Of a stretch of DNA of 64,000 nucleotides, positions 4,968-64,000 are shown piece by piece. Within the stretch, counting starts at the first letter, position 1, and the number at the start of each line of letters is the position of its first letter. This stretch comes from Tolypothrix carrinoi HA7290-LM1 (GTDB lineage Bacteria > Cyanobacteriota > Cyanobacteriia > Cyanobacteriales > Nostocaceae). The notes below the pieces were generated by a model that saw only the letters and a list, made by a program, of their open reading frames with translations, ran no database searches and was not told the origin of the DNA. The position numbers were made by a program, and so were the translations under genes. The stretch is from assembly GCA_019358935.1 (NCBI GenBank), contig JAHHIK010000001.1, positions 32,001 through 96,000 of the forward strand, given 5' to 3'.

Positions 4968-6248
4968 ATGCCTCAGAATCCGGAAAATATTCAAGATCAC
5001 GTCGAACTATTCCACCAACCGGAATACCAACAGTTATTTGAAAACAAAAAGCAATTTGAAAACGGACACAGCCCCGAAGAAGTTGCCCGTGTTGCAGAAT
5101 GGACGAAGGGTTGGGAGTATCGTGAAAAGAACTTCGCCCGTGAAGCATTGACCGTCAACCCCGCTAAAGGTTGCCAACCATTGGGTGCAATCTTCGCTGC
5201 TGTTGGTTTTGAAGGCACTCTACCTTTTGTCCAAGGTTCTCAAGGTTGCGTAGCTTACTTCCGCACCCACTTAACCCGTCACTACAAAGAACCGTTTTCT
5301 GGCGTATCTTCTTCGATGACAGAAGACGCAGCGGTGTTTGGTGGACTGCAAAACATGATTGATGGGTTGGCAAACTCCTACCAACTCTACAAGCCAAAGA
5401 TGATTGCTGTCTGCACCACCTGTATGGCAGAAGTTATCGGTGATGACTTGCAAGCTTTCATCAACAACTCCAAGAATGCAGGTTCAGTTCCTCAAGATTT
5501 CCCAGTACCCTACGCTCACACTCCTAGCTTTGTTGGTTCCCACATCACTGGTTATGATAACATGATGAAGGGTATTCTTTCTAACTTGACCGCAGGTCAT
5601 AAGAAAGAAACCAGCAATGGCAAAATCAACTTTATTCCTGGCTTTGATACCTACGTTGGTAACAACCGGGAAATCAAGCGGATGTGTGAATTGATGGGCA
5701 TCGATTACACAATCTTGGCAGATAACAGCGATTATCTGGATTCACCCAACACAGGTGAATTTGATATGTACCCAGGTGGTACTCCGTTGGAAGATGCAGC
5801 AGATTCGATTAATGGTAAAGCCACAATCGCTCTGCAAGCACACTCTACCATCAAAACCCGCGAGTACATCGAAAAAGAATGGAAGCAACCAACTGTTGTT
5901 TCTCGTCCTTGGGGTATCAAGGGTACTGATGAGTTCTTGATGAAACTCAGCGAACTGACTGGTAAACCCATTCCCAAAGAACTAGAAATCGAACGCGGTC
6001 GCGCAGTTGATGCGATGACTGACTCCCATTCATGGCTGCACGGCAAGCGCTTCGCTATGTATGGCGATCCCGATCTAGTTTACAGCGTAGTCGGCTTCAT
6101 GCTAGAAATGGGTGCTGAACCCGTGCATATCCTTGTCCACAACAGCAATGAAAACTTTGAGAAAGAACTCAAAGAGTTGCTAGCTTCTAGCCCCAATGGT
6201 AAGAGTGCTACTCTGTGGGCTGGTAAAGATTTGTGGCACATGCGTTCT
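4968..6248 (+). CDS. nifK: 5' segment (codons 1-427) of nitrogenase MoFe beta subunit, interrupted; the frame runs on to a non-homologous stop at 6272
   Basis: NPAKGCQPLG, QGSQGCVAYFR and TTCMAEVIGDD motifs. Homology ends at GKDLWHMRS; the expected continuation (LLFTEP...DRHH...FDLIR) is replaced by KMCLLSG*. Confidence 0.95.
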
Positions 6249-6268
6249 AAGATGTGTTTGCTATCAGG

Positions 6269-63400: not shown

Positions 63401-64000
63401 ATCTCGGACGCGCAGACCAGCAAATTAAAATACGCGGTTTTCGCATTGAACCTGGGGAAATTGCAGCCGTACTCAGCACTCACCCCCAAATCAAAGAAGC
63501 ATTCGTCACAGTTCGCACAGCAGCGAACGCAGATAATCGGATTGTAGCCTATTTTGTATCTGATGCCGAAGATGACTTGAAAACAGTATTGCGATCGTTT
63601 TTAACAAGCAAACTGCCGGATTATATGATTCCTGCTGCCTTTATGCCCATAGAAGCAATACCGCTGACAGTTAACGGAAAAATTGACCAAACAGCCTTAC
63701 CAGCACCTGATTGGGGACAGACGAGTAAACCTTACATCGCACCCCGAAATGACCAAGAAGCAACAATCTGTTCGTTGATGGCTTCATTATTAAAATTAGA
63801 ACGAGTAGGTATTACCGATGACTTCTTTGAAATTGGTGGAGATTCTCTGTTAGTCACACAATTAGTCATCCGTTTGCGAGAAACATATAAAACCGAGCTT
63901 CCCTTACCTCAGTTTTTCTCTCATCGCACCCCAGAACAACTAGCTCATTTGCTGTCAACCTCCCCATCCGTGCAACCAAACGCAGACATCCCCAAAGCCG
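57439..64000 (+). CDS. hasV: Initiating NRPS C(starter)-A(Thr)-T-C(modAA-like)-A(Thr)-T, open to the window end; missing from the ORF track
   Basis: ATG 57439 MIFTLSINQREIY; HHTITDGW; two [23 protein letters not shown] domains; GGDSI (~60604) and GGDSL (~63835). The frame was consistent at every point I checked. Confidence 0.9.
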   Translation, partial: MIFTLSINQREIYIDQMMWTEGSHLNIGAIVTVQGAFDIEIFNYAINKVIRCYPGLRTRIYEFEGKPLQTIAPHQDEKVPLVDFSSYEDREERANEYIKSEFATPFSFGENAPLIAFKLIRVTLQKHIIFAKYHHTITDGWGTAIFFREVIGTYNQIIKNGADTQTERNLALIDYLQDESAYLESRNFQSDRSYWTKRLTFVSTKLFPLIKPQQLLGNRKAIYISRDKYNRVNALCQKVQSNAFHFILSLIIIYLAKRYSKSDLVIGLSLLNRNKKSFKDEIGLFVSTIPFRVEITGNETVQELLDKIRSLLRQDYRHQRFPLAEMKRIANLQPGSKEHLFEVYLSYEKHDYNECFADTKTSCVPLYSGQQKIPLIVYVREYEAQSDIKIDFDYNLSYFDSETAEQIVTNFQKLFDEASEMETTISSLSLLLPEERFIQKPTITTANETLISAFESSVSKYSENPAVQFKNITLTYAELQAKANRLAHYLLKLGVKPGTRVGMCLERSENTVVAILGILKAGAAYVPLDPNYPSERIELILQDSGISVLIAEESVLVSLCEKNTYLINRRDAEKPARCGGSPRCSDWRDAEEEKGETGKIRESFSGVLQLSFQVAAFTLESIESELAKEPDTSLEVSVNPEFPAYIIYTSGSTGTPKGCIVTHANVIRLMRSTEAWFGFNEKDIWTLFHSFAFDFSVWELWGAILYGGKVIIVPFWLSRSPEAFREFLTTEKVTVLNQTPSAFSQLIRADEASVGKLSLRYVIFGGEALDLQSLRPWLEKYGDRTLRLINMYGITETTVHVTYRPISLSDLTANASVIGTTIPDLTIYLLDEKLELVPDGLPGEIYIAGAGVTHGYLNRPALTAERFVPNPFSKEKGKSKKEKETEEVDSGRLYRSGDLGRRLPNGDLEYLGRVDRQVKIRGFRMELGEIQTALTSHSQVREALIVTDEWLEEKRLVAYYVPGESNPTANELRQHLKTKLPDYMIPSAYVSLDVFPLTVHGKIDVRLLPTADWNLLREEDEYVAARNRDEESLCAIVADVLGLERVGIDDNFFDIGGDSILALQVIAKAKKAGFAISGRELYEFATVRQLATKKAAISEVLLSNVNLLSEPERLLLPKGAENAYPLSSLQAGMLYHSEMHPDSAIFHQIFTFDLRLPYSEESWKKAIADIILAHPVLRTSFHWTGYSTPIQIVHREVELPLTICDLRTAVDARHKVEEWIKSEKTKSFNVSQAPLFRFQIHRLEEFHLSFSFSFHHVILDGWSVATLLTQLLQRYIYYIDAKSIPPLTVPAIPYSDFIAQEQSAIANQQMREFWQKHLSNLEVSILPRLKQVSQNNSKRQLQRHGIAINEQIANPIRTLAKSAGVTLKTALLAVHLRVLAFLTGQNEVVTGNVINARPEIEDSQNLLGLFVNTVPFRIELTSGSWLDFIQAVFRAEREIIPFRNFPLFEMQRLTEKRTLFDVAFNYVHFHVYEGLLNLPQVEVLNVDIFEETDFSFLVEFCLMPGSSALQLNLVYDVQQFDEAQVEQYGKYYQTALRELATNPELLARRSLISPEERQSLLQADNHKASYVSDETLVSAFTAAAKQHASHTAVTFEETNLTFAELEIRSNRLAHYLKSKGVCPEMLVGLCLERSEQLAIAILAILKAGGAYVPIDTSYPSSRIDYLLQDSGISLLVTQRSVVSQISAGESEAARCGGSLRCSDCRVEIVVLEDIAVQLENQSSESVAVKILPDHPAYVIYTSGSTGKPKGCIVTHANVIRLLKATEPWFKFDSDDVWTLFHSYAFDFSVWELWGALLYGGKVVVVPYWTTRSPKDFLKLLQSEKVTVLNQTPSAFKQLVQVATKNVELTLRYIIFGGEALELQSLQPWFELYGDEKPRLINMYGITETTVHVTYREITQADVTNRSSVIGQPIPDLSFYILDENLEPSPIGVAGEVYIAGAGVTRGYLHHPRLSAERFIPNPFAFVPGSRLYRTGDLARRLPNGELEYLGRADQQIKIRGFRIEPGEIAAVLSTHPQIKEAFVTVRTAANADNRIVAYFVSDAEDDLKTVLRSFLTSKLPDYMIPAAFMPIEAIPLTVNGKIDQTALPAPDWGQTSKPYIAPRNDQEATICSLMASLLKLERVGITDDFFEIGGDSLLVTQLVIRLRETYKTELPLPQFFSHRTPEQLAHLLSTSPSVQPNADIPKA

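Follow-up and report, generated by a model that had tools for sequence, protein, structure and literature searches.

Why heterocystous cyanobacteria keep elements inside their nitrogen-fixation genes, and what these elements contain, is an old question. In Anabaena/Nostoc sp. PCC 7120, a 55-kb fdxN element is excised specifically in heterocysts by XisF together with XisH and XisI. For nifK, eight elements of two variants have been surveyed; the variant at nucleotide position 1277-1279 has GTTC, GTTCT or TCTTT repeats, carries a serine recombinase in minus orientation at the element end, and spans 16.0, 28.8, 36.2, 64.8 or 84.7 kb (Hilton et al. 2016, PMC4874684). The nifK element of Calothrix sp. 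NIES-4101 excises under nitrogen-fixing conditions, the evidence being a restored nifHDK contig, polymerase chain reaction products, and junction reads at about 4% (Uesaka et al. 2024, PMC11249958). In this study, we analysed a stretch of 64,000 nucleotides of Tolypothrix carrinoi HA7290-LM1 (the window; positions 32001-96000 of contig C1, JAHHIK010000001.1) within a genome of 7.96 Mb in 184 contigs (99.65% complete). The stretch enters a 61,075-bp element inside nifK, nearly all of which is taken up by a predicted hassallidin-type (has) nonribosomal peptide synthetase (NRPS) cluster. We assign a probability of about 0.8 to the whole explanation developed below, namely that this is a nifK element of the position-1277 variant with an intact has-type cargo, probably excised in heterocysts and vertically inherited.

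A nifK gene split by a 61-kb element

The nifK gene of the window breaks off after 427 codons. Its open reading frame (ORF; 4968-6272, plus strand) follows NifK as far as ...KDLWHMRS and then runs through seven unrelated codons into a stop. The NifK part matches positions 1-432 of the 516-position equivalog model TIGR01286 with 754 bits (cut-off 427.3 bits), positions 1-336 of the 399 of PF00148, and DUF3364. The break lies after window position 6248 (...CACATGCGTTCT/AAGATG, the slash marking the junction), and the stop-codon end of the first cargo gene, a glycosyltransferase on the minus strand, follows 20 bp past it. A profile search of window positions 6249-64000 found no nifK 3' part, no nifE and no nifN. 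The break after 427 codons, the 20-bp distance and the missing downstream genes had been described in an earlier interpretation made from the DNA letters without database searches (hereafter, the sequence-only reading), and profile analysis bears this out.

The same reading had pointed past position 64000 for the missing parts, and they are there. A genome-wide PF00148 scan gave a match to profile positions 323-398 at C1:99282-99509, 3.3 kb beyond the window end, where a serine recombinase adjoins the nifK 3' piece (LLFTEP...), with a GTTCT repeat before it and nifE and nifN after it. Positions past the window end are given below as window-equivalent coordinates (C1 minus 32000, or locus L010 plus 58000).

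4968..6248, plus strand: nifK 5' piece, 427 codons
6244..6268: attL, made of the core GTTCT (6244-6248; nifK nucleotides 1277-1281) and the left 20-nt element end (6249-6268)
6249..64000 in the window, on to window-equivalent 67323 (C1:99323): nifK element, 61,075 bp, GC 0.410 (contig 0.412)
Window-equivalent 65723-67276, minus strand: XisF-family large serine recombinase ("XisK"), 517 aa, with Resolvase, Recombinase and Zn_ribbon_recom domains
Window-equivalent 67300-67323: attR, made of the right 20-nt element end (67300-67319) and the core GTTCT (67319-67323)
Window-equivalent 67324-67578, plus strand: nifK 3' piece, 84 codons and stop (LLFTEPVDLL...), matching TIGR01286 432-516 and PF00148 338-398
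Window-equivalent 67784-68134, downstream of the nifK 3' piece: Mo-nitro_C ORF (Mo-nitrogenase C-terminal domain)
Window-equivalent 68358-69887, downstream of the nifK 3' piece: nifE
Window-equivalent 69887-71194, directly following nifE: nifN

Jointly, the two nifK pieces make one complete in-frame gene (TIGR01286 1-432 plus 432-516). Neither is disrupted by a stop or a frameshift, and at the protein level the 5' piece is 96-98% identical to its counterparts in relatives. The sequence-only reading had raised the possibility of a separate intact nifK; a whole-genome profile search found neither a second nifK nor a vnfK above the model cut-offs, so that the split gene is the sole Mo-nitrogenase beta subunit. 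The host genome also contains hetR.

The direct repeat GTTCT (nifK nucleotides 1277-1281) flanks the element at both junctions, with attL reading CACATGCGTTCT/AAGATGTGTTTGCTATCAGG and attR CCTGATAGTGAGCGCATTGGTTCT/TTGCTGTTCAC. The element end sequences and the core recur in elements of other genera, and the left element end (...ATGTGTTTGCTATCAGG) is kept across genera. The outermost 20 nt of each element side form imperfect inverted repeats, with matches at 18 of 30 positions when a 4-nt centre is allowed, which is the dyad expected of a serine-recombinase attP. Five uninterrupted nifK genes run straight through the insertion site with the same codons, and recombination at any point in the GTTCT core would join ...WHMRS to LLFTEP... 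in frame. The recombinase scores 516.5 bits on the NCBI equivalog model for XisF (NF041201; cut-off 375 bits). It is intact and lies 47 bp inside the right end, on the strand opposite to nifK, reading toward the nifK 3' piece; its N-terminus contains ...YARVST..., which we take to be the catalytic-serine motif. Judged by its ends, its target and its recombinase, the element is a member of the nifK interruption family, position-1277 variant.

A false join of nifK to an unrelated cluster, a concern that the sequence-only reading had itself voiced for position 6248, was addressed with the contigs of four sequencing runs aligned to C1:20301-40300. One source-run contig crosses the junction with 0 differences, and contigs of two unrelated runs, X4 (a rock metagenome) and X5 (a bioreactor-sludge metagenome), cross it with 32 and 76, respectively. 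In a further run, X2 ("organism A"), one contig stops 24 nt beyond the junction and the next begins 19 nt on, while a 31.7-kb contig maps deeper in the element; the loaded element is thus present in three runs besides the source run, bridging the junction in X4 and X5 and abutting it in X2. The assemblies of five relatives, either named strains or metagenome-assembled genomes (MAGs), have nifK broken after the same 427th codon, and attL and attR are complementary. Nothing was found in favour of an assembly artefact, the chance of which we consider negligible.

It could also be argued that nifK was inactivated by an insertion that became fixed and is no longer restored. Such a dead gene would agree with the interruption of nifH and nifD in the same operon, and with the source-strain contigs, which show the integrated form. 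However, the two gene pieces are undamaged, the 5' piece retains its high protein identity to relatives, and the recombinase is intact and 94-99% conserved within the Tolypothrix clade. Furthermore, the att ends fit the family consensus, no alternative nifK or vnfK was found, and the same architecture is functional in NIES-4101 (PMC11249958), which together make permanent inactivation very improbable.

The cargo is a predicted hassallidin-type cluster

The cargo fills about 59 kb of the 61 kb and comprises 23 genes and a GtrA-like fragment, from 6269 to window-equivalent 65381. The first eight genes were assigned by Pfam and NCBIfam.

6269-7477, minus strand: macrolide-type glycosyltransferase
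7628-9295, minus strand: ABC exporter
9583-10866, plus strand: MFS exporter
10933-12969, minus strand: alpha-amylase-family enzyme
13448-14224, plus strand: methyltransferase
14702-16090, minus strand: second MFS exporter
16168-17022, minus strand: cupin/JmjC hydroxylase
17146-18210, minus strand: NAD epimerase/dehydratase
18212..29314, minus strand: NRPS, 3700 aa, intact frame, with 3 adenylation, 3 carrier and 4 condensation-type domains
29401..38604, minus strand: NRPS, 3067 aa, with 2 adenylation, 2 carrier and 4 condensation-type domains
38639-39211, minus strand: Asp/Asn beta-hydroxylase
39531-40295, plus strand: short-chain dehydrogenase
40448-41326, minus strand: DUF4231/SLATT-like membrane protein
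41722-41931, minus strand: GtrA-like fragment
42339-42959, minus strand: hexapeptide acyltransferase
43297-44931, minus strand: PMT_2 glycosyltransferase
45053-46141, minus strand: second free-standing methyltransferase
46294..54783, minus strand: terminal NRPS, 2829 aa, condensation (C)-adenylation (A; N-methyltransferase)-carrier (T)-C-A-T-thioesterase
54820-55641, minus strand: 273-aa protein of no known family
55864-56754, minus strand: WelO5-type Fe/2OG halogenase
57439..64000 in the window, stop at window-equivalent 64071, plus strand: NRPS, 2210 aa, C-A-T-C-A-T
Window-equivalent 64342-64563, plus strand: MbtH-like gene
Window-equivalent 64560-65381, plus strand: DXD glycosyltransferase

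The four intact NRPSs (2210, 3700, 3067 and 2829 aa) contain 2+3+2+2, that is nine, adenylation domains; hassallidin is a nine-residue peptide. The 2210-aa protein starts with a condensation domain and is likely to provide a lipo-initiation module. Within the 2829-aa protein, the penultimate module is N-methylating and the final one carries the thioesterase. From end to end (2834 columns) this terminal synthetase shares 70% identity with a Planktothrix serta PCC 8927 protein whose name reads "involved in Hassallidin biosynthesis"; its identity to the Anabaena sp. 90 synthetase is 69%, with the same domain order. Homologues of its residues 900-1500 in Tolypothrix sp. NIES-4075 and "Hassalia byssoidea" reach 92-95%. 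The full-length identity of the terminal synthetase and the four-NRPS, nine-module layout uphold the class that the sequence-only reading had proposed, and the cluster is, as a prediction from its genes, hassallidin-type.

Sugar decoration would fall to the three glycosyltransferases and the acyltransferase. Two free-standing methyltransferases, two hydroxylases, an epimerase, a dehydrogenase and an amylase-family enzyme are also encoded, together with the halogenase, the MbtH-like gene, the ABC exporter and two MFS exporters. Only the DUF4231 gene, the GtrA-like fragment and the protein of no known family are without an evident pathway role. The halogenase and the extra methyltransferases suggest a variant product. 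The halogenase, of the carrier-independent WelO5 type, adjoins the first NRPS, and an 81% identical copy is found in a paralogous cluster of [Scytonema hofmanni] UTEX 2349; the lipopeptide may be chlorinated.

Between the glycosyltransferase and ABC exporter genes lies a tandem repeat of the heptamer GGGGAAT and its variants (window 7503-7612). Because contig depth there is in more than 100-fold excess in all four runs, it is a short repeat that occurs genome-wide.

Distribution of the element family

A scan of species-representative genomes for orthologues of the recombinase retained 62 loci at 69-99% identity, all in Nostocales-type cyanobacteria. At 55 of these, the 84-codon nifK 3' piece is encoded on the other strand, 48-208 bp upstream of the recombinase; among the other seven, three have no upstream contig DNA, three have the piece 1.6-4.4 kb off, and one has a different arrangement. 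Of 151 evenly sampled genomes of the family, 33 contain the recombinase, and in 32 of these 33 the nifK 5' piece ends at model position 431-435 (one of the 32 being read through a stop to 468). A full-length nifK match was obtained in 104 of the 151 genomes, and in eight the nifK match begins at position 151-155, corresponding to the other element variant.

One genome of the sample (G130) has both the element recombinase and a full-length nifK, at C160:6841-8391 and C53:18114-19646. It may have two nifK copies, a moved element, or an element that was assembled in its excised form.

Loaded and decayed elements in relatives

A quick maximum-likelihood tree of 61 recombinases, with the second XisF-like protein of the source genome as a distant row, places all has-linked elements in one seven-row Tolypothrix clade, and both branches of its first split include intact clusters. 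MAG PMM_0081 (recombinase 94% identical) is collinear with the source on the left over window 4963-25519 and on the right over 57088-68500. Nucleotide identity is mostly about 86-94% but drops to 77-83% in the second MFS gene and in an epimerase fragment; the first NRPS of this MAG is unbroken. In Tolypothrix sp. VBCCA 56010 (recombinase 99%), the left side matches as far as the contig end, and only three fragments of two NRPS genes are left near the recombinase.

Other relatives have reduced elements. Plectonema radiosum NIES-515 (recombinase 95%) has an element of about 27 kb in which the tailoring genes are kept; the cupin, the epimerase and one NRPS gene survive there only as remnants of 0.3-0.6 kb. 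The element of UTEX 2349 (Tol9009; recombinase 96%) is 16 kb long (C15:390307-406345; the 16.0-kb entry in PMC4874684) and contains the ABC exporter, a methyltransferase, an MFS, DUF4231, GtrA-like, acyltransferase and PMT_2 glycosyltransferase genes, and a further methyltransferase gene. In Tolypothrix brevis (recombinase 94%), a 4-kb element consists of the two ends and the DUF4231 segment (the DUF4231 gene with the GtrA-like fragment). We considered whether this small element represents the ancestral state and rejected this as less parsimonious, as it is nested in the clade and is made up of just two ends and a segment from the middle.

The DUF4231/SLATT-like gene is retained in all three reduced elements that were seen whole (NIES-515, UTEX 2349 and T. 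brevis), and it may belong to the element rather than to the pathway.

UTEX 2349 has a second, complete hassallidin-type cluster with the same four NRPSs on another contig (C14:243000-291400), showing 71-89% protein identity to the nifK-borne cluster (cupin 55%). Its nifK element keeps exactly those tailoring and export genes that the second cluster is missing, and these may therefore shape the products of the strain. The pattern fits a loss of redundant genes and suggests that those remaining in the element are still in use, with labour possibly shared between a locus that is excisable and one that is fixed. In the source genome, a search for HasY-type genes found only the nifK-borne copy of the cluster. 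Elsewhere in the family sample, 15 genomes contain HasY-type genes with an identity of at least 59%. In G022 and G152 these genes are located outside small nifK elements, in G155 (UTEX 2349) the gene occupies a different contig, and in G012, G031 and G116 the pieces are spread over separate contigs.

Cargo and flanking gene diverge in step: both cargo and nifK of VBCCA 56010 are 96-97% identical to the source, and for PMM_0081 the values are 90-93% for cargo and 94% for nifK. Since three relatives carry decayed versions, the load appears to be old, vertically inherited and dispensable. We prefer vertical descent over recent horizontal spread because cargo identity tracks nifK identity, the GC content is host-like, and the cargo decays in sister lineages; no sign of recent spread was seen in the compared relatives.

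These comparisons do not support the suggestion of the sequence-only reading that the element offers a vehicle for horizontal spread, in which the loaded element would move among strains and, by insertion in nifK, distribute hassallidin clusters. In favour of such a role, the default reaction of large serine recombinases is the integration of attP into attB, and the nifK target is conserved in genomes that are free of the element. Such a role would also agree with the occurrence of has clusters in several genomic contexts, plasmids included (PMC8600333), and with the second, 71-85% identical cluster elsewhere in UTEX 2349. Yet domain searches of the element found no transfer, phage or conjugation genes, its GC equals that of the host, and all has-linked elements fall in a single recombinase clade. 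Moreover, the identity values of VBCCA 56010 and PMM_0081 follow those of nifK, and HasY-type genes of other genera, where resolvable (G022 and G152), lie outside nifK elements. An active vehicle is thus improbable, and the simplest reading of the compared sequences is one ancient acquisition followed by vertical descent and repeated erosion.

Biosynthetic cargo recurs in large nifK elements

Examination of other large elements of the family showed that the Tolypothrix load has counterparts. The MAG of Brasilonema angustatum HA4187-MV1 contains a nifK element of about 53 kb (G080:C83:15000-69900; L108-L110) with six type-I polyketide synthase (PKS) genes of 1550-3025 aa, a carbamoyltransferase and two methyltransferases; scanning four of the PKS genes revealed an AprA-type loading region and a thioesterase. 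Elements of about 100 kb in Nostoc sp. JL34 (G156:C66:43200-143400; L136-L140) and about 81 kb in Nostoc sp. P943 (G157:C60:73800-153800; L132-L135) each carry a mixed PKS/NRPS cluster ending in a thioesterase, the former together with a TonB-dependent receptor and a penicillin-amidase-like gene. Megasynthase clusters thus fill four of the five examined nifK elements above 50 kb (the source, G080, G156 and G157), in three lineages. The fifth, a 68-kb element of Rivularia (G160:C1:4936000-5004000; L141-L144), has caspase, CHAT and STAND-WD40 genes. Because the Brasilonema and the two Nostoc elements hold clusters as well, biosynthetic cargo recurs, and from this comparison we infer that large nifK elements repeatedly accumulate biosynthetic gene clusters.

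Among smaller elements, one of 44 kb (G018:C27:187600-233800; L111-L113) encodes type III CRISPR-Cas (RAMPs and Cas6) and helicases, and one of 36 kb encodes P450s, oxidases and TrpB/TrpD-like proteins. The CRISPR-Cas and the caspase/CHAT/STAND-WD40 elements represent defence-like cargo in nifK.

The recurrence could reflect selection for cell-type-specific removal. On this view, which extends the proposal of the sequence-only reading that the element couples the pathway to differentiation, excision would be a heterocyst-specific switch that stops or raises lipopeptide production, and this benefit would account for the position of the cluster in nifK; the product class is membrane-active, which would fit. 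Such a functional coupling is nevertheless unlikely, as the cargo was lost or eroded in three sister lineages while the element stayed, and as elements of the same family elsewhere carry CRISPR-Cas, STAND/caspase or miscellaneous genes. In addition, excised circles persist in the heterocysts of PCC 7120, so that excision need not silence the cluster genes. More broadly, and tentatively, excised nifK elements might act as recurrent collectors of biosynthetic gene clusters, separating costly or membrane-active pathways from the chromosome of the nitrogen-fixing cell, irreversibly and by cell type; it is equally possible that useful cargo keeps a selfish element from being purged.

Proposed excision and history

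In a vegetative cell, the cluster would be ordinary chromosomal DNA and direct the synthesis of a glycosylated, possibly chlorinated lipopeptide. In a differentiating heterocyst, the recombinase, probably with xisH/xisI-type helpers encoded elsewhere, would recombine attL with attR within the core, whereby nifK would be rejoined in frame (...WHMRS + LLFTEP...) and the cluster released as a 61-kb circle. The cluster would have entered the element in an ancestor of the Tolypothrix clade, to be inherited vertically and eroded by deletion in several descendants. Excision in the heterocysts of the source strain is probable because both gene halves and the recombinase are intact and the ends match the consensus, and it is a sound inference from the orthologous system of NIES-4101 (PMC11249958).

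Several observations weigh against this explanation. In the four runs, which are at contig level and represent the integrated form alone, neither a rejoined nifK nor a circle was seen; likewise, the alignments listed for C1:20301-40300 showed neither a rejoined nifD nor a loose end at the nifK junction. As contigs drop rare variants, these nulls are uninformative either way. The genome contains at least 10 adjacent xisH-xisI pairs, none of them inside the nifK element; the need for helpers is assumed from the fdxN element. Around the start of the recombinase gene, sequence scans gave no sigma-70-like promoter, NtcA-like site or terminator. With regard to the cargo, the hassallidin-type product is a predicted one, and no fatty-acyl ligase or free carrier protein was found in the element, nine small gap ORFs included; the paralogous cluster of UTEX 2349 likewise has neither. 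Finally, the recombinase tree is a quick one, in which the has-linked clade has an SH-aLRT value of 91 and three partial rows were dropped.

Neighbouring nif elements and other nitrogenase genes

Upstream of nifK, the window holds the right-hand part of a nifD element:

3054..4472, minus strand: xisA-type recombinase of the nifD element, 472-aa ORF with a weak Phage_integrase match
4592..4741, plus strand: nifD 3' tail, 49 codons, directly 3' of the 11-bp repeat

The 11-bp repeat GGATTACTCCG occurs at C1:21717 and C1:36591 (window 4591) and delimits an element of 14,874 bp. The sequence-only reading had noted the recombinase gene, its site and the nifD tail as intact.

The nifH gene is split as well. 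Residues 3-259 are encoded on another contig (C40:1360-2130) and a 30-residue tail (257-286) at C1:20113-20202, so that the nifH element spans a contig break. The tail lies 22 bp from the second XisF-like recombinase, which is 39% identical to that of the nifK element (locus C1:18532-20202, upstream of the window). Since nifH, nifD and nifK are each interrupted, the nifHDK operon needs at least three excisions.

A further contig (C35:20463-24186) contains a nifH-like gene, a 453-aa nitrogenase-component-1-like frame and a partial one of 272 aa. These frames fall below both the nifK and the vnfK cut-offs, and the genes may represent a second, incomplete or interrupted nitrogenase-like cluster.

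Comparison with known systems and implications

Our results bear on the contents of the elements that heterocystous cyanobacteria keep in their nif genes. One defined element family can hold a complete 59-kb NRPS cluster of predicted antifungal type, the load was inherited and eroded across a Tolypothrix clade, and in three lineages megasynthase clusters are independently present at the same nifK site. Two ideas can now be tested in culturable strains: that excision alters metabolite production by cell type, and that cargo stabilises the element. In practical terms, genome-mining tools would report such clusters and miss their location inside nifK, while nifK-based surveys would miss or split the interrupted genes.

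In its GTTC/GTTCT core at nifK nucleotides 1277-1279 and its minus-oriented serine recombinase at the element end, the Tolypothrix element is like the variant described by Hilton et al. (PMC4874684), with a recombinase distance from the end of 47 bp compared to 51-62 bp there. The sequence-only reading had called the element giant. At 61 kb it is indeed large, yet published nifK elements of the same variant reach 84.7 kb. The survey covers a genome set without this Tolypothrix, and its text on gene content, in the passages available, does not mention NRPS, PKS or secondary metabolism.

In NIES-4101, nifK is split by its element after 426 residues, compared to 427 here (PMC11249958). By its coordinates, its recombinase CnXisK is locus L046 of our scan, and it is 77% identical to the Tolypothrix enzyme. 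In both elements the recombinase gene is found on the nifK 3' side in the orientation opposite to nifK, and in both genomes xisH-xisI pairs are found only outside the elements (PMC11249958). The two differ in content: the NIES-4101 element measures 8.6 kb with no biosynthetic cargo reported in the passages available, whereas about 97% of the 61 kb in Tolypothrix is a hassallidin-type cluster.

Like the fdxN element of PCC 7120, the Tolypothrix element is large and has a recombinase recognised by the XisF model, and homologues of xisH and xisI are present in the genome. Unlike it, the element has another target gene and att site, and the helper genes are not inside.

With regard to the cargo, the has cluster of Anabaena sp. 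90 (PMC3542288) and that of Tolypothrix each have four NRPS genes, and the latter shares sugar-tailoring genes with the known clusters, which are those of Anabaena sp. 90 and Planktothrix serta PCC 8927 and the copies on plasmids. Plasmid-borne hassallidin clusters have been described in Tolypothrix tenuis PCC 7101 and Aulosira laxa NIES-50 (Popin et al. 2021, PMC8600333), and the nif elements of Anabaena 90 carry other genes, not the has cluster (PMC3542288, passages available). The known clusters occupy ordinary chromosomal or plasmid sites, whereas the Tolypothrix cluster lies inside nifK and adds a WelO5-type halogenase.

A full-text literature search, whose coverage did not extend to Vestola et al. 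2014, found no description of a biosynthetic cluster inside any nif interruption element, and term look-ups in the available text of Hilton et al. 2016, Uesaka et al. 2024 and an A. cylindrica preprint found none in nif elements. Taken together, the element belongs to a known family; what is new is its cargo, the series of decay in its relatives, and the recurrence of biosynthetic clusters at the nifK site.

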